NCBI GenBank assembly: GCA_044223005.1
Contig: JBGAML010000002.1
Span: 266,457 to 330,456, forward strand
Length of the DNA: 64,000 bases
From: Candidatus Eiseniibacteriota bacterium
GTDB taxonomy: Bacteria > Eisenbacteria > RBG-16-71-46
Direction of reading: 5' to 3'
In this document: positions 55,668-64,000 of the stretch, in pieces
Numbering within the stretch: position 1 is the stretch's first letter
Layout: every line of letters begins with the position of its first letter
Translations under genes and position numbers: made by a program
The notes under the pieces: generated by a model
What the model was told of the DNA's origin: nothing
What the model saw: the letters and a program-made list of their open reading frames with translations, nothing else
Database searches by the model: none

Positions 55668-57089
55668 TCACTCGCTCCAGACCAGGCGCCGCGTTTCGCT
55701 GAGCGGGCCGGCCTCGAGCCGCGCGAAGTAGACGCCCGGGCTCGCCGCGGTGCCCTGCTCGGTGCGGCCGTTCCATTCGAGCGAGTAGGCGCCCGCGGCG
55801 TGGAAGCCGTGCGCGAGCCGCGCGACGGTGCGGCCCTGCGTGTCATAGAGCGTGAGGCTCGCGTCGCCGTCGTGCGGCAGCGCGAACGCGAGCTGGACGC
55901 GGCCGAATGCGGGATTGGGCGTAGGCGCGGCGAGCGCGCGCGTCGCGGGCGCGGAGCCGACGGCGAGCGTCGAGGCCTGCGGCAGGAGCACGACCGCGCG
56001 CGAGATGCCGCCCTGCGTCGCCGTCGCGAGGATCCAGCCGTCGGCGTTCATGTCGGCCACGTCGGTCAGCGTCCAGCCGGCGCCGCTCGCGTCGAGGCAG
56101 GCGCCGAGGTCGAAGATCGCGCCGTCGCGCCAGAGTACGATGCGCGTCTGCAGCGCGACCCACGGGAACACGGTCACGTCGATGAGTGACGACGAACCGA
56201 GCACGGTCGCGCCGTCGGCGCTGACGACCTGCGCGCGGGATTCGTTGTAGCCCGGCCACATCGGCAGCTCCGTCGGCGTGTGCAGCGTGTCGCGCGACCA
56301 GCGGGTCGCCCGGTCCAGCCCGAACGGATACATGGTGTAGCCCACGGCGTCGCCGGCGTCGTTCCAGTCGCCGGGCATGCTCTGGTTCGAGTTCGCGAGC
56401 GGCTCGAGCAGCACGGGTGTGTGCCCGGCGTCCGCGAGCCAGAGCGAGGCGCGATCGCCGATGCCGAGATTGGTGCGGCCGAAGACGCGTCCCGAGGCGT
56501 CGATCGCTTGCGCCTCGGTCCAGCCGAAGACGGGATCGCCGCTCGGGTGCATCGGCAGGAAGGAGCGGTCGAACCGGCCGGGCTGGCCGGCGCGCTCGAC
56601 CCAGATGGCGGCGTTCCAACCGCCGCCACCGCCGCTCTTGGTGATCATCCCGCAGATGGTGCCGGCGTCGTTCACGTCGAACGCATAGACGTTGGCGTTG
56701 CCGTCGCCGCCGCGGTCGAGATCGAGGATGTCGCCGGCGCGCCAGAGGATCGGCCGCGGCTGCGGGTCGGCGGTGTTGCTCCAGCCGACGATCCAGCCGC
56801 CGGCGTTCATGCCGCTCGAGAAGCTGCCGTCGAAGCCGGTGAGCCCGAGCAGGTCGGTGACCGAGACGACGCCGCCCTGCGCGGTGAGGTCCCAGCGCGT
56901 CGCGTGGCCGCCGAACGTGCCCGGGAGGTCCGTACCCCCGAGCACCGTGGGACCCGGGCCGAAGTGGCGCGGCACCGACGACGTGCCGCCCGGCAGCATG
57001 CCGAGATCGACCAGGTGGTAGAGCGGGGCGGCGGACGCGGCGGCGGCGAAGGCGAGCGCGACGGCGGCGAGGACGGCGGTGCGGCGCAT
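55668..57089 (-). CDS. Secreted HAF-type extracellular repeat protein with a T9SS-type CTD
   Basis: GGAGGAG lies before the ATG. The signal peptide is MRRTAVLAAVALAFAAAASA. The N-x-x-G-x-V-x-G repeats are VNDAGTICG, IDASGRVFG and WNDAGDAVG. The C-terminal APTPNPAFGRVQLAFAL...GVYFARL is the CTD. Confidence 0.65.
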   Translation of the reverse strand: MRRTAVLAAVALAFAAAASAAPLYHLVDLGMLPGGTSSVPRHFGPGPTVLGGTDLPGTFGGHATRWDLTAQGGVVSVTDLLGLTGFDGSFSSGMNAGGWIVGWSNTADPQPRPILWRAGDILDLDRGGDGNANVYAFDVNDAGTICGMITKSGGGGGWNAAIWVERAGQPGRFDRSFLPMHPSGDPVFGWTEAQAIDASGRVFGRTNLGIGDRASLWLADAGHTPVLLEPLANSNQSMPGDWNDAGDAVGYTMYPFGLDRATRWSRDTLHTPTELPMWPGYNESRAQVVSADGATVLGSSSLIDVTVFPWVALQTRIVLWRDGAIFDLGACLDASGAGWTLTDVADMNADGWILATATQGGISRAVVLLPQASTLAVGSAPATRALAAPTPNPAFGRVQLAFALPHDGDASLTLYDTQGRTVARLAHGFHAAGAYSLEWNGRTEQGTAASPGVYFARLEAGPLSETRRLVWSE

Positions 57090-57395
57090 GTTCTCCTCCG
57101 GGAGGGTTCGGCGCGGACGGGGGAGGTCGCGCCGGAGAAACGTGTTCAAACTTACAAGTGGAGGAGGATGGATATCGGGCTTACGCGCGGCGCACGCGCG
57201 CGTGACCTCCCGCTGCCCCACAGGTCGCCCGGCGCCCCGGGCCGGTTCGGCGGTGCGAAACCGCGCCCCCGGCGCGGCGCGTGCCCGCCGCCGCGTGCCG
57301 GTGCTATCGTCGCCCGGATCGCGCGCGGCCCACCCGTGGCCGCGCACCGTGCGTCGTTCCGCCGCGGCCCGCCGCGGCACACCGGAGGGTCGCGG

Positions 57396-58409
57396 ATGCG
57401 TCGCGTCGTGGGCTGTGTGCTGGCGGTGCTGGTCGCGCTGGCGATGGGAACCGGGGTCGCGCAGTCGGCGCGCCCGAAGATCGGGCTCTCGCTGCCGACG
57501 CAGCGCGAGGAACGCTGGGTGCGCGACAAGCAGGCGATGGAGGCCGAGGCCGCGCGGCTCGGGATCGACCTGCGCGTGCAGGTCACGGACAACGACGCGG
57601 CGCGGCAGATGGCCCAGTGCGAGAACCTGATCGCGCAGGGCGTGCAGGTGCTGATCCTCGCGCCGCACGACGCCTCGAGCGCCTCGGCGATCGTCGAGAA
57701 GGCGGCGCGCGCGGGCATCCCGGTCATCAGCTACGACCGCCTCGTCACCGATTCGCCGCGCGACTACTGGTACCTGTCGTTCGACAACGTGAAGGTGGGC
57801 GAGCTGCAGGGCGAGTTCCTCGCGAGCCGCGTGGCGAAGGGCAACATCGTCGTGCTGTCGGGTTCGCCGACGGACAACAACGCGAAGCTCTTCCGCCAGG
57901 GCGCGATGAACGCGCTCGCGGCCAAGATCAAGAGCGGCGCGTTCAAGGTGGTCATGGACCAGCCCGTCCGCGACTGGCAGCCCGCCGAGGCGCAGCGGCT
58001 CATGGAGCAGGCGCTGACCGCCAACGCCAACCACGTCGACGGTGTGCTCGCGCCCAACGACGGCACCGCGGGCGGCGCGATCCAGGCGCTGGCCGCGCAG
58101 CACCTCGCCGGCAAGGTGCCCGTGACGGGGCAGGACGCCGAGGTCGCGGGTGCGATTCGCGTCGTGCAGGGCACGCAGAGCATGACCGTGTTCAAGGACA
58201 CGCGCCTGCTCGCGAAGCAGGCGATCGCCATGGCGCTCGCGCTGGTGCAGAAGAAGCCGATCGACACCGGCGGCCGCACCGTGAGCAACAACAAGCACCC
58301 GATCCCGTCGGTGCTGCTCACCCCGAAGGTGGTGACGCGCGAGAACCTCGACGCGGTGCTGATCGCCTCGGGGTACCTGCGACGCGAGCAGGTCTACCGC
58401 AAGCCGTGA
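57396..58409 (+). CDS. xylF: D-xylose ABC transporter substrate-binding protein
   Basis: GGAGGG lies 6 nt before the ATG. It is collinear with E. coli XylF (RWVRDKQ, DRLV.D...YY.SFDN.KVGELQ, SPTDNNAKLF, ALTAN.N.VD.V.A.ND.TAGGAIQAL). Confidence 0.8.
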   Translation: MRRVVGCVLAVLVALAMGTGVAQSARPKIGLSLPTQREERWVRDKQAMEAEAARLGIDLRVQVTDNDAARQMAQCENLIAQGVQVLILAPHDASSASAIVEKAARAGIPVISYDRLVTDSPRDYWYLSFDNVKVGELQGEFLASRVAKGNIVVLSGSPTDNNAKLFRQGAMNALAAKIKSGAFKVVMDQPVRDWQPAEAQRLMEQALTANANHVDGVLAPNDGTAGGAIQALAAQHLAGKVPVTGQDAEVAGAIRVVQGTQSMTVFKDTRLLAKQAIAMALALVQKKPIDTGGRTVSNNKHPIPSVLLTPKVVTRENLDAVLIASGYLRREQVYRKP

Positions 58410-58428
58410 CGGCGGAGCGCCGGATCCC

Positions 58429-59973
58429 GTGAGCGACGTGCTGCTCGAGGTGCGCGGGCTGACGCGCGATTTCCCCGGCGTGCGCGCGCTGGAGGACGTG
58501 TCGTTCGACGTGCGCCGCGGCGAGATCCACGCGCTGGTGGGCGAGAACGGCGCGGGCAAGTCGACGCTCCTCAAGATCCTGGGCGGCATCGATCCCATGG
58601 GCGGCTGGAGCGGCGCGTTCGCGCTGGACGGCCGCCCGCAGCACTACCGTTCCGTGCGCGACGCGGAGGCCGCGGGCATCGCGGTGATCCACCAGGAGCT
58701 GGCGCTGGTGCGCACGCTCTCGGTGGCGGAGAACCTCTTCCTGGGCGCCGAGCGGCTCGCGGCGCCGGGCGTCGTGGACTGGCCGCGCACGACCCGCGAC
58801 GCGGAGGCCGCGCTCGCGCGCGTCGGGCTGCGCGTGAGCCCGGCGACGCGCGTGAGCGAGCTGGGCATGGGCGAGCAGCAGTTGGTCGAGATCGCGCGCG
58901 CGCTGACGCGCGACGCGCGGCTGCTGGTCCTGGACGAGCCGAGCGCGTCGCTCGCCGAGGCCGAGACCGACCGCCTGCTCGAGATCCTGAACGGCCTGCG
59001 CGCCCGCGGCGTGAGCGCGATCTACGTCTCGCACCGCCTGGGCGAAGTGCGGCGCATCGCCGACCGCGTCACCGTGCTGCGGGATGGTCGCGTCGTCGAG
59101 ACCGACGACGTCGGGCGCATGAGCGAGCAGCGCATGGTGCGCAGCATGGTCGGGCGCGAGCTGGGCGAGCTCTACCCGCACCGCGTGCGCGAGCCCGGCG
59201 AGGCGCTGCTCGCGGTCGAGGGCTGGACGGTCGCCGATCCGGCCGACGGCCGCACGCGCGTGCGCGACGTGTCGTTCGAGGTGCGCCGCGGCGAGATCCT
59301 CGGAATCGCCGGGCTCGTGGGCGCGGGCCGCACCGAACTGGTGACGAGCCTGTTCGGCGCGTGGGGCCGGCCGGTGGCGGGCCGCATGCGGATCGGCGGG
59401 CGCGAGGTGCGCGTGCGCGATCCGCACGAGGCGATCGCGCTCGGGCTGGGGCTCGTGACCGAGGACCGCAAGCGCGGCGGCATCGTGCCCGAGCTGGACG
59501 TCGTGCGGAACACGACGCTCGCGAGCCTCGCGCGCGTTTCGCGCGCGGGCGTGATCGACCACGCGGCCGAGGCGCGCACCGCCGCCCGCAGTGCCGCCGA
59601 GCTGCACGTGCGCGCTTCGGCGCTCGACCGGCGCGTGCGCGAGCTCTCGGGCGGCAACCAGCAGAAGGTACTGATCGCGCGGGCGCTGCTCGCCGAGCCG
59701 CGCGTGCTGTTCCTGGACGAGCCCACGCGCGGGATCGACGTCGGGGCGCGGGCCGAGATCTACGAGATACTCGAATCGCTCGCCGACCGCGGCGTGGGGG
59801 TGGTGATCGTCTCGAGCGACCTGCCCGAGGTGCTCGGCATGAGCGATCGCGTGCTCGTGATGTGCGAAGGCCGCGCGACCGCCATGCTGGCGCGAGCCGA
59901 GGCGACCGAGGAGCGGGTGATGGGCTTCGCGACCGGGGCGATCGCGGTGGCGGCCAGCGGGAGGCGATCGTGA
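58429..59973 (+). CDS. xylG: Xylose/sugar ABC transporter ATP-binding protein (two NBDs)
   Basis: There are duplicated Walker A motifs (GENGAGKST; GLVGAGRT) and a signature LSGGNQQKV. It lies immediately downstream of xylF. Confidence 0.85.
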   Translation: MSDVLLEVRGLTRDFPGVRALEDVSFDVRRGEIHALVGENGAGKSTLLKILGGIDPMGGWSGAFALDGRPQHYRSVRDAEAAGIAVIHQELALVRTLSVAENLFLGAERLAAPGVVDWPRTTRDAEAALARVGLRVSPATRVSELGMGEQQLVEIARALTRDARLLVLDEPSASLAEAETDRLLEILNGLRARGVSAIYVSHRLGEVRRIADRVTVLRDGRVVETDDVGRMSEQRMVRSMVGRELGELYPHRVREPGEALLAVEGWTVADPADGRTRVRDVSFEVRRGEILGIAGLVGAGRTELVTSLFGAWGRPVAGRMRIGGREVRVRDPHEAIALGLGLVTEDRKRGGIVPELDVVRNTTLASLARVSRAGVIDHAAEARTAARSAAELHVRASALDRRVRELSGGNQQKVLIARALLAEPRVLFLDEPTRGIDVGARAEIYEILESLADRGVGVVIVSSDLPEVLGMSDRVLVMCEGRATAMLARAEATEERVMGFATGAIAVAASGRRS

Positions 59974-61166
59974 CGGCGCGAGGCGGCTTCGCAGCGGGAT
60001 TCCGCGCCAACGCGCGGCAGTACGTGATGCTCGTGGCGCTGGCCACGATCTGGATCGTGTTCGCGTTCCTCACTGACGGTACGTTCCTCACCGCGCGCAA
60101 CGTGTCGAACCTCGTGGTGCAGACGGTGACGACCGCGATCCTCGCGATGGGCATCGTGCTCGTGATCGTGGCGGGACACATCGACCTCTCGGTCGGCTCG
60201 GTGCTCGGCTTCACGGGTGCGGTGTGCGCGACGCTCATGATCTCGCACGGCTGGGGCGTCGTGCCCTCGATCCTGGCGACACTCGCCGTGGGGCTCGCGA
60301 TCGGTGCGTGGCACGGCTTCTGGATCGCCTACCGGCGCGTGCCCGCGTTCATCGTGACGCTGGCGTCCATGCTCGCGTTTCGCGGGTTGATCATCGGGAT
60401 CACGGGCGGCCAGACTCAGGGGCTCGAGATGGCGCGCGAATCCGTGGCCGCGAGCTTCCAGCGGATCGGCCAGGGTAACCTGCCCACGTGGCGGCCCGCC
60501 GTCGAGGGCCAGTTGCACGACACGACGCTCGCCGCCTCGCTGCTGGTGCTCGCGATCGTGGTGGCGATGCGGCTGCGCGCCCGCGCCGCGCGGCGGCGCG
60601 ACGGCCTGCCGCCGGTGCCGGTGTGGATCGAGGCGGCCCGGCTCGCGCTGCTGGTCACGGCGGTCGCGGGCTTCGGCGGCGTCATGACGTTCTACCAGGG
60701 CCTGCCGTGGTCGGTCGTGCTGCTGCTCGCGCTCGCCGCGGTCTTCAGTTTCGTGGCCAACGACACCACGTTCGGCCGCCGGCTCTACGCGATCGGGGGC
60801 AACGCCGAGGCCGCGCGGCTCGCCGGGATCGACGTCCCGCGGACGACGCTGGGCCTCTTCGTCACCATGGGCGTGATGAGCGCGCTGGCGGGCATCGTGA
60901 CCACGTCGCGGCTGAATGCGGCGACCACGTCGGCAGGCCAGAACGCCGAACTCGACGCGATCGCAGCCGCGGTGATCGGCGGCGCGTCGCTGATGGGCGG
61001 CGAGGGCACGGTGGTGGGCGCGCTCGTCGGCGCGCTGGTGATGGCGTCGCTCGACAACGGCATGAGCCTGCTGAACCTCGACATCACGTGGCAGTACGTG
61101 ATCAAGGGACTGATCCTGCTCTTCGCCGTGTGGGCCGACGTGGCGCAGCGCAAGACCGCGCGCTGA
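59970..61166 (+). CDS. xylH: Xylose ABC transporter permease
   Basis: The GTGA overlap with the xylG stop follows GGGAGG. It has ~10 TM helices. The branched-chain/sugar permease EAA-like loop is ...YAIGGNAEAARLAGI. Confidence 0.8.
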   Translation: MTARGGFAAGFRANARQYVMLVALATIWIVFAFLTDGTFLTARNVSNLVVQTVTTAILAMGIVLVIVAGHIDLSVGSVLGFTGAVCATLMISHGWGVVPSILATLAVGLAIGAWHGFWIAYRRVPAFIVTLASMLAFRGLIIGITGGQTQGLEMARESVAASFQRIGQGNLPTWRPAVEGQLHDTTLAASLLVLAIVVAMRLRARAARRRDGLPPVPVWIEAARLALLVTAVAGFGGVMTFYQGLPWSVVLLLALAAVFSFVANDTTFGRRLYAIGGNAEAARLAGIDVPRTTLGLFVTMGVMSALAGIVTTSRLNAATTSAGQNAELDAIAAAVIGGASLMGGEGTVVGALVGALVMASLDNGMSLLNLDITWQYVIKGLILLFAVWADVAQRKTAR

Positions 61167-62705: not shown

Positions 62706-63179
62706 TCAGGCCTCGTGCGCCTCGACGAACCAGAGGTCCTTGTCGACTTCGCGCGAGATCTCGGTGGCGAGATCGGCGCTGTCGGCGTCGCCGGCTTCGG
62801 CGAACTCGTCGATCGCGGTGCGCACGTATTCGCCGAAGGTCGCGAGTGCGGCAGCGACGAGCGCGACGTGCTCGTGGTCGGCGACCACGTCCGTCGGGTA
62901 GGGCTCGAGCCGCGTGGCCTTCGCCGCGGCCTGCAGCGTGCCCGTCGGCTGGCCGCCCAGCGCGGCGACGCGCTCGGCGATCGTGTCGGTCCATTCGCCG
63001 CCGTGCTCGTAGACGTCGTCGAAGAGCTTGTGCAGCGCGATGAAGTTGGGGCCGCGCAGCGCCCAGTGGGCCTGCTTGGCCTGCATCGTGAGATCGGCGG
63101 CGTCGGCGAGCAGCTGGTTCAGCGAGGCGCAGACCTTCTTGCGCGCCTTCTCGGGCAGGGTGTTGCGGGTCTTGTTCAT
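62706..63179 (-). CDS. dps: Dps (DNA-binding ferritin-like starvation protein)
   Basis: The ferroxidase-site context HW.LRGPNF..LH..FD...E....D..AER...LGG.P and the Dps four-helix length (157 aa) are present. Confidence 0.8.
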   Translation of the reverse strand: MNKTRNTLPEKARKKVCASLNQLLADAADLTMQAKQAHWALRGPNFIALHKLFDDVYEHGGEWTDTIAERVAALGGQPTGTLQAAAKATRLEPYPTDVVADHEHVALVAAALATFGEYVRTAIDEFAEAGDADSADLATEISREVDKDLWFVEAHEA

Positions 63180-63307
63180 GTCGTGAGCCTTTCGCGTCGT
63201 GCGTGCCGCACGGGCAGGCCGCCCGCGCGGGATGTCGCGGCCGCGAAGACCGTAGACCCGGCGGCGCCGGGGCTCAACCGCGCCACACGTGCCCCGCGCT
63301 TGACCGG

Positions 63308-64000
63308 GTGCGCGGGCTCGCGCACCCTCGCCCGACTCGATTTCCGCGCTGGGCCGCCCCCGCGAATCGCGCGCGGGCCGGCGTCCCCGCGCCCGGCCGG
63401 GAGGGCGGTTCCATCCACCGCGAGTACGTCACCTCGGGCTTCCTCGCGCTGCGCACCCCGATGCTCCCGTTCTCGACGCTCGAGACGTGGGCGGCGGGAC
63501 TCACGTGCGCGCGCGATCCGGACGACGCGGCGTGCTGGCGGCGCGATCGCGAGGCGGCCCGCGCGGTGCTGCGCGCGCACCTCGCCGAGCCGCTGGTGCA
63601 CGAGGCGATCGCGCTCGCGTCGCCGGCGCTGCTCGAGCGGTTGCCGGCCTGGCTCGCCGATCCCGATGCGGAGCCCGGTGTGGAAGCGGGCCTGGTGAAG
63701 TACGTCTCGCGCATGGCGGCGCGAGCGACGCCCTTCGGCACGTTCGCGGGCACCTCGCTCGCGCGCATCGGCGGCGCGCCGCGGCTCGAGCTGCCCTCGC
63801 GCCGCACCGCGGTGCGCCATTCGCGCCTGGACATGGACGCGCTGAGCGAGGTGGTGGCGGTGCTCGAGCGTGATCCCGCGATCCGCGCGGGCGCGACCTA
63901 CTCGCCCAACACGAGCCTCTACCGGATCGGCGACACGCTGCGCTACGCCGAGGCCCGACGGCGCGACGGCGTGCGGACCTACTTCCTCGTGAGCGTCGAG
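63308..64000 (+). CDS. Lanthipeptide/thiopeptide-type dehydratase (LanB family, Lant_dehydr_N), truncated at the window end
   Basis: FLALRTPMLPF, IALASPALLERL and VKYVSRMAARATPFGTFAGTSLA match the LanB N-terminal signatures (f.lRtPllP; AlylASpsL; Y..Rm..R.TPFGlFAg). The start is uncertain. GTG 63308 is the first canonical in-frame start, but rare codons upstream suggest the true start lies nearer 63400. A strong GGGAGGG at 63399-63405 is followed 7 nt later only by an in-frame ATC. The next in-frame ATG (63455) would cut the conserved motif. Confidence 0.55.
   Translation, partial: MRGLAHPRPTRFPRWAAPANRARAGVPAPGREGGSIHREYVTSGFLALRTPMLPFSTLETWAAGLTCARDPDDAACWRRDREAARAVLRAHLAEPLVHEAIALASPALLERLPAWLADPDAEPGVEAGLVKYVSRMAARATPFGTFAGTSLARIGGAPRLELPSRRTAVRHSRLDMDALSEVVAVLERDPAIRAGATYSPNTSLYRIGDTLRYAEARRRDGVRTYFLVSVE

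Follow-up and report, generated by a model that had tools for sequence, protein, structure and literature searches.

The relatives of known structure that are closest by sequence to the protein described here are 9g04 (E 1.5e-38), MibB (PDB 5ehk, E 1.7e-37) and NisB (PDB 4wd9, E 4e-12), all of which combine a Lant_dehydr_N domain with Lant_dehydr_C/TIGR03891. The same architecture is found in LanB, the class I lanthipeptide dehydratase encoded at the 3' end of a 64,000-nt stretch of DNA from a Candidatus Eiseniibacteriota bacterium (contig JBGAML010000002.1; this whole stretch is referred to as the window). Unlike NisB, MibB and 9g04, this LanB belongs to an uncultured high-GC lineage whose closest named relatives are Candidatus Eisenbacteria metagenome-assembled genomes, a conserved gene for a membrane protein of 158-223 amino acids (aa) separates lanB from lanT, and ATC or CTG appears to serve as start codon of lanB in most members of the clade.

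Start codons of this kind have precedents. In E. coli, infC and pcnB start with AUU, and the AUU of infC is regulated by IF3. In Deinococcus, dnaA starts with ATC and rpsL with CTG, which was proven by N-terminal proteomics and is conserved in the genus (PMC2830850), and an ATC-initiated upstream open reading frame in Sinorhizobium is backed by Ribo-seq. Initiation at AUC and CUG reaches ~1-2% of the level of AUG in E. coli, with methionine inserted at the N-terminus (bioRxiv 10.1101/063800). As in lanB, the near-cognate codons of Deinococcus dnaA and rpsL are conserved and stand where N-terminal conservation begins, and the mixed extended and truncated annotations of dnaA turn uniform as soon as the near-cognate start is adopted, an argument that we apply here as well (PMC2830850). 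In contrast to dnaA, rpsL, infC and pcnB, the support for the lanB start is comparative only. LanB is moreover a secondary-metabolite enzyme, unlike the core replication and translation factors among the proven cases, and the autoregulatory logic by which IF3 acts on infC has no known counterpart for lanB.

Both the class I lanthipeptide cluster and conserved ATC or CTG starts are thus of known kinds; the dehydratase gene has a seemingly clade-wide near-cognate start that is mis-annotated by the pipelines. Literature searches on LanB together with non-canonical start codons returned nothing. We consider it quite probable that lanB is the first gene of an operon and is translated from ATC 63413 by means of a strong Shine-Dalgarno sequence (SD), and that the 35-codon extension given to it by gene callers is an annotation artefact.

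Identity of lanB and sequence of its start region

An earlier reading of the sequence alone (the first-pass annotation) had recognized the N-terminus of a LanB-type dehydratase at the end of the window. Lant_dehydr_N (Pfam PF04738) is matched by the 231 residues encoded between GTG 63308 and the end of the window (E 7.5e-33), and all peptides quoted in support of that assignment (FLALRTPMLPF, IALASPALLERL and YVSRMAARATPFGTFAG) are present in the translation. Counted from ATC, the first 196 codons (63413-64000, plus strand), which encode part of the glutamylation domain, lie in the window before the gene exits it. On the 100%-identical contigs L001 and L004 the frame stays open up to its stop codon, yielding a protein of 1098 aa as called from GTG 63308; NCBI entry P0001 is the identical 1098-aa protein and is located on a contig of 337,867 bp. 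Full-length LanB covers positions 2-647 of the 649 of Lant_dehydr_N (E 5e-144) and exceeds the cutoff of TIGR03891 (194 bits, cutoff 48). Beyond the window, on L001/L004, positions 1-255 of the 255 of Lant_dehydr_C (PF14028) are matched as well (E 6.4e-59), so that the C-terminal elimination domain, whose absence downstream would according to the first-pass annotation have spoken against the assignment, was indeed found. The N-terminal glutamylation and the C-terminal glutamate-elimination domain are therefore both carried by one polypeptide. R135, R139, T141, P142, F143, G144, R173, L174 and D175 (1098-aa numbering) are invariant in 12 homologues and are all encoded within the window; they form the motifs R..R.TPFG and R-L-D, which we take to be the counterpart of the NisB glutamylation-site residues R83/R87/T89/D121. 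Judged from its sequence, and by every criterion that could be tested, the gene at the window end is a full-length class I lanthipeptide dehydratase.

The lanB frame is preceded by an in-frame TGA (63089-63091), and no ATG occurs between this stop codon and the FLALRTP motif, as had been pointed out earlier. The likewise described arrangement of an SD, GGGAGGG at 63399-63405 (plus strand), and an in-frame ATC was confirmed: after a 7-nt spacer (63406-63412) follows ATC 63413-63415, the proposed initiation codon, which is 10 codons away from the F of the downstream FxxRTP. In the 128 kb that the two strands of the window add up to, GGGAGGG is present only 3 times, and this rarity, together with an SD at the same place in orthologues, argues that the SD is more than a chance occurrence. 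Three canonical codons in the same frame have to be considered. GTG 63308-63310, used by the gene callers for the 1098-aa product and judged here not to be the start, lacks an SD. An internal ATG, previously placed at 63455, is actually located at 63461-63463; it corresponds to Met17 counted from ATC, lies inside the LRTP(M/L)LPF motif and has no SD either. GTG 63308 and the internal ATG had been regarded as the only canonical candidates, but a further in-frame GTG exists at 63203-63205, situated 70 codons 5' of ATC and 24 nt past the point where the divergent Dps gene starts; it is implausible as a start. While the missing SD of GTG 63308 was correctly noted before, the rare codons said to precede this codon (CCT, ACT, CGA, TTT and AAT) in fact follow it.

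If GTG 63308 were the true start, LanB would possess a lineage-specific Arg/Pro-rich extension of 35 residues, and GGGAGGG plus ATC would simply be coding sequence (R-E-G-G-S-I). This codon is canonical and opens an uninterrupted frame, genes starting with GTG are common in this genome, and the gene callers picked GTG 63308 for P0001. However, the 35 codons of the extension (63308-63412) have a flat GC content at the first, second and third codon positions (0.86/0.80/0.83), and their codon log-odds average -0.15, compared to 0.80/0.52/0.94 and +1.19 for the rest of the lanB coding sequence, in which no window of 35 codons scores as low. Rare codons make up 5 of the 35 codons of the extension (14%), compared to 2.3% in the coding sequence. 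The extension is non-coding in character, and a change-point estimate placed the onset of coding at 63377-63413 at most thresholds. The same method was applied to the 33 other genes of the window, taken as the open reading frames (ORFs) with GC3 above 0.88 and GC2 below 0.62. In all of them ATG, GTG or TTG was found at most 15 codons (median ~2) from the coding onset, so that lanB is the exception. The two other frames over 63308-63412 score even lower for coding, and a programmed frameshift from another frame was therefore rejected. The mechanical ORF list of the window is full of long ORFs that overlap on both strands, for instance around 55668-58643, where 976 aa on the minus strand face 709 aa on the plus strand; this is due to the GC content of the window of 70-76%.

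As a second option besides a non-canonical codon, the first-pass annotation had suggested a sequencing or assembly indel that conceals a normal ATG or GTG start. The region is GC-rich and repetitive, and one orthologue (L087) carries an apparent 1-nt frameshift ~80 codons into the gene, both of which would fit such an error. Overlapping contigs were found in three Logan assemblies (runs SRR28480385, SRR28480386 and SRR28480381), with the Dps neighbour as anchor. They are identical to the source contig through the lanB start, the only mismatch in any overlap being located at 61071, which excludes an assembly-specific indel. Furthermore, SD and ATC recur in 4 orthologues from other studies, and no frame of the predicted 5' untranslated region (5'UTR) offers an ATG, GTG or TTG that could become usable near the SD through a single indel. 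We regard an indel as extremely improbable; of the two options, the non-canonical codon stood and the indel did not.

Proposed start codons at orthologous lanB loci

The codon at the position of the proposed start was read at 13 lanB loci, comprising the window and DNA of 12 close relatives. Five of them, namely the window, L086, L089, L090 and L087, have ATC at this position, and in each of these an SD is situated 4-7 nt upstream (GGGAGGG +7 in the window, GGGGAGGG +7 in L086, AGGGAGGA +7 in L089, AAGGGAG +4 in L090 and AGGGGG +6 in L087). The position of the SD is similar across these loci while the bases of the spacer differ. In L088 and L091 the SD is followed by CTG ATC, and L006, L007 and L098 have CGGGAG, 6 nt and CTG. 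A canonical start is present only in L009 (GTG), L100 (GTG) and L099 (ATG). A near-cognate codon is thus found at 10 of the 13 loci, preceded by an SD at a distance of 4-7 nt in the window and the 9 others. In L090, L087, L006 and L098 no in-frame ATG, GTG or TTG exists between the upstream stop codon and the conserved N-terminus, which requires a near-cognate start there unless the invariant S-G-F..R-T-P..P is lost. In a neighbour-joining tree the five ATC loci form one clade with 63-70% mutual amino acid identity, the CTG loci group in another clade, and the GTG loci branch off at the base. From this distribution it is most likely that the ATC start arose once and stayed through long divergence.

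In the DNA alignment, conservation begins at the ATC column and nothing upstream of it is conserved except the SD; conservation of the protein begins at ATC as well. The distance to the F of FxxRTP is 10 codons from ATC 63413 and 45 codons from GTG 63308. In most of the ~60 distant relatives with a recognizable motif, which include Thermoanaerobaculia, Myxococcota and Actinomycetota, ATG, GTG or TTG lies 10-20 codons before this residue. The in-frame GTGs upstream of the start in orthologues are located at -23, -55, -9, -23 and -42 codons or are absent. The counterpart in L086 of the extension from GTG 63308 is dissimilar in both length and sequence, and no such extension can exist in L090, L087, L006 and L098. 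Together with the missing SD, the codon statistics and the promoter-like element described below, these observations make GTG 63308 unlikely as the start of lanB.

Translation might instead begin at the downstream ATG 63461, or lanB might be an untranslated relic; in both cases the conserved N-terminal motif would be dispensable. ATG 63461 is the first ATG of the frame, and the gene callers chose downstream starts in L089, L090, L006 and L098. However, S-G-F, R-T-P and P54 are invariant in 12 aligned homologues, which shows translation and selection of this segment, and the position of the internal ATG is occupied by Leu in orthologues (Ala in two loci). The downstream canonical codons of the orthologues are scattered over +5 to +60 codons and lack an SD. 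A relic is further contradicted by the frame of 1063 codons from ATC, which is uninterrupted and has a strong coding signature. We judge this explanation to be highly improbable.

The ATC and CTG starts could also be a habit of the lineage, in which relaxed start-codon discrimination would act genome-wide and not on lanB specifically. The frequency of near-cognate codons at the related lanB loci agrees with this, and such starts are invisible to gene callers and would hence be under-reported. Set against it are the 33 of 33 other confidently coding ORFs of the window, with their canonical codons close to the coding onset, and the other genes of the cluster (lanA, lanC, lanT and the small gene between lanB and lanT), which start with ATG or GTG. 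A genome-wide habit is thus very unlikely in our opinion.

Returning to ATC as the start of lanB, the lack of a canonical codon at the homologous position explains why callers extend or truncate the proteins of the orthologues. They extended them from GTGs at -9 to -42 codons, which are non-homologous positions, or shortened them. The N-termini of P0001, P0002, P0007 and P0008 are extended by 9-35 residues, and those of P0003, P0004, P0005, P0009 and P0012 are truncated by 11-90 residues with loss of the invariant motif. The near-cognate loci have SDs of the GGAG type (AGGGGG in L087) 4-7 nt upstream, whereas those of the three canonical loci are weak or badly spaced (L009:5217-5239, GTG; L099:1720-1742, ATG; L100:1607-1629, GTG). 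This comparison suggests that weakness of the start codon is offset by strength of the SD across the loci.

In the L087 locus (L087:9820-10060; P0005 locus, JAXLXR010000001.1) the conserved N-terminus (ATC CGC CGC GAC...) lies in another frame than the rest of lanB. The apparent 1-nt indel falls in a GCGCGCG run; either the assembly is wrong at this point or the gene is a genuine pseudogene. As a result of this apparent frameshift the database protein P0005 is truncated to 1012 aa.

Promoter-like element and predicted initiation at ATC

Upstream of lanB, a -35-like hexamer TTGACC (63300-63305, plus strand) was recognized by conservation across the loci, and 17 nt after it a -10-like hexamer CACCCT (63323-63328, plus strand), in which A2 and T6 are kept. 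At 9 of the 13 loci a single copy of the combination TTGAC[CG], 17-18 nt and NAnn[CT]T precedes the proposed start by 59-134 nt. With a background of 1.6e-4 per nt for the hexamer, the 8 loci in which it lies between -130 and -40 give a binomial P of ~2e-12. CA(C/G)(C/G)CT is present at equal spacing in 5 of the 5 ATC-type loci although the spacer sequences differ. These hexamers would constitute a sigma-70-like promoter that drives lanB, and their positions imply that transcription starts near 63335, which would give a 5'UTR of ~77 nt. Since GTG 63308 is located in the spacer between the two hexamers, it would not be transcribed from this promoter. Both GTG 63308 and GTG 63203 are thus disfavoured by promoter position as well as by codon statistics.

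The predicted 5'UTR was inspected for other elements. The leader gave no hit in Rfam at E<=1 and its fold was not more stable than that of shuffled sequence (z +1.0), so that a riboswitch or leader RNA is unsupported. An upstream ORF with re-initiation was rejected, as all frames of 63335-63412 are free of ATG, GTG and TTG. An unusual initiator tRNA encoded nearby is likewise unsupported, the window containing no tRNA genes.

Several observations weigh against the ATC start. GTG 63308 is in frame and is used in both the NCBI and the Logan gene calls, and in E. coli initiation at ATC is very weak. The change-point is imprecise and varies over 63350-63413 with the threshold. An SD was seen at only ~10-15 of the 33 genes of the window, so that dependence on it is not universal. 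A scan of 63100-63500 for consensus sigma-70 promoters and terminators gave 0 hits, which we ascribe to a -10 hexamer that is too weak, and the promoter is inferred from conservation only. Among the orthologues, the upstream GTG of L086 would fall just inside the predicted transcript, and in L087, besides the frameshift, the ATC is followed 5 codons later by a GTG.

If lanB starts at ATC as we favour, transcription from the TTGACC 63300 / CACCCT 63323 promoter would yield an mRNA on which the strong SD, 7 nt upstream of AUC, places the 30S subunit. The initiator tRNA would then pair with AUC despite the mismatch at the third position, and the codon would presumably be decoded as formylmethionine. 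The predicted product is a LanB of 1063 aa beginning with M-H-R-E-Y-V-T-S-G-F-L-A-L-R-T-P. The combination of a weak start codon and a strong SD probably sets a low translation rate of LanB. Given the efficiencies of AUC and CUG relative to AUG, a low output is expected unless the lineage discriminates less strictly between start codons.

A more speculative idea, to which we give only limited credence, is that the near-cognate start, rather than being a defect that is tolerated, is a selected regulatory device by which lanB translation in this Eisenbacteria-type clade is throttled and made sensitive to the proofreading of start codons (IF3 level or state of the ribosome, by analogy with infC). 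The contrast between strong, well-spaced SDs at the ATC and CTG loci and the weak or misplaced ones at the three GTG/ATG loci supports this idea. Through such a device the amount of dehydratase, and with it the maturation of the lanthipeptide, would be coupled to the translational status of the cell.

Initiation at ATC or CTG would also mean that every database copy of this member of the LanB family is wrong at its N-terminus, which would spoil heterologous expression of these clusters and mislead alignments of the family. It would provide a comparative-genomics case of naturally conserved AUC/CUG initiation in a high-GC uncultured phylum, for which very few documented examples exist otherwise. 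Near-cognate starts with strong SDs may be systematically overlooked by gene callers.

The lanthipeptide cluster around lanB

The first-pass annotation had placed the window at the edge of a cluster for a ribosomally synthesized and post-translationally modified peptide and had expected a cyclase and a Cys/Ser/Thr-rich precursor in the flanks. Contigs of the same organism bore this out, as besides the elimination domain of LanB they encode the small protein, LanT, LanC and a 54-aa precursor. In relatives with long contigs, lanB is followed by the gene of the 158-223-aa protein and by lanT (Peptidase_C39 plus ATP-binding cassette, ABC), while lanC and an ORF of 53-56 aa are convergent to them. 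For the window the operon is accordingly predicted to comprise lanB, the gene of the small membrane protein and lanT, with lanA and lanC convergent just beyond. A LanC of 427 aa (P0101) is recorded on a contig of also 337,867 bp, which we take to be the contig of P0001. The run that yielded L001 also yielded contig L097, on which the 54-aa ORF, LanC, a convergent C39-ABC LanT of 727 aa and the small gene, represented by its 3' end, are located. There is no sequence overlap between L004 and L097, the gap falling inside the small gene, so that the adjacency of lanB and L097 in the window's own genome is deduced. Searches of the window with tblastn for precursor and LanC genes gave chance hits only, as these genes lie beyond its end. 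The cluster is a conventional class I lanthipeptide system, found in a phylum for which a full-text literature search on Eisenbacteria and lanthipeptides returned no paper.

The 54-aa precursor on L097 (MENKKAPVQKLQLNRETLRCLTEAETKRVEGAALTTKGCTCTHTSSRTTCIIFC) contains a Gly-Ala site, after which comes a core with 4 Cys and 10 Ser/Thr. With 21.4 bits (E 2e-4) against NCBIfam NF038153 (class I lanthipeptide leader L1a) it stays slightly below the cutoff of 22, and its leader K-K-L-x-L-N-R-x-T-L-R-x-L-T...V-x-G-A resembles those of precursors of that type. Gly-Ala before the core is consistent with the C39 peptidase domain of LanT. The core ALTTKGCTCTHTSSRTTCIIFC was assigned to no characterized lanthipeptide in this analysis.

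The gene 3' of lanB overlaps the lanB stop codon (GTGA) and has its own GGGGAGGG, 6 nt and GTG. It was located at L004:6962-7300 (partial), L086:3344-3970, L087:13036-13557, L089:5127-5699 and L090:3393-3980. The N-terminus of the small protein, D-P-L-F-R-R-E-A-V-E-(D/E)-Y-L followed by a hydrophobic helix, presumably resembles a shortened HlyD/CvaA-type exporter accessory protein. Searches of this protein against Pfam and NCBIfam gave no hit, and the label HlyD was dropped.

A scan of JGI metagenomes for close relatives retrieved only 4 loci, with 41-44% identity. At every locus examined, the 3' ends of lanT and lanC overlap by exactly 56 nt (L097:1634-1689, L087:15682-15737, L088:16063-16118, L091:16003-16058 and L098:9061-9116). 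Some relatives harbor a second, different precursor gene divergently upstream of lanB (L088:9744-9926, L091:9792-9974 and L100:1283-1462, all on the minus strand), which encodes 59-60 aa with the core ...CGSRASACCPCTGTSTxGPTQPLxC; that of L100 scores 27.3 bits against NF038153, above the cutoff. In the window its place is occupied by the divergent ferritin/Dps-like gene (62706-63179, minus strand; Pfam Ferritin E 2.5e-21), which is outside the cluster. The coding sequence of the second precursor, on the opposite strand, overlaps the promoter-like TTGACC of lanB in L088 and L091.

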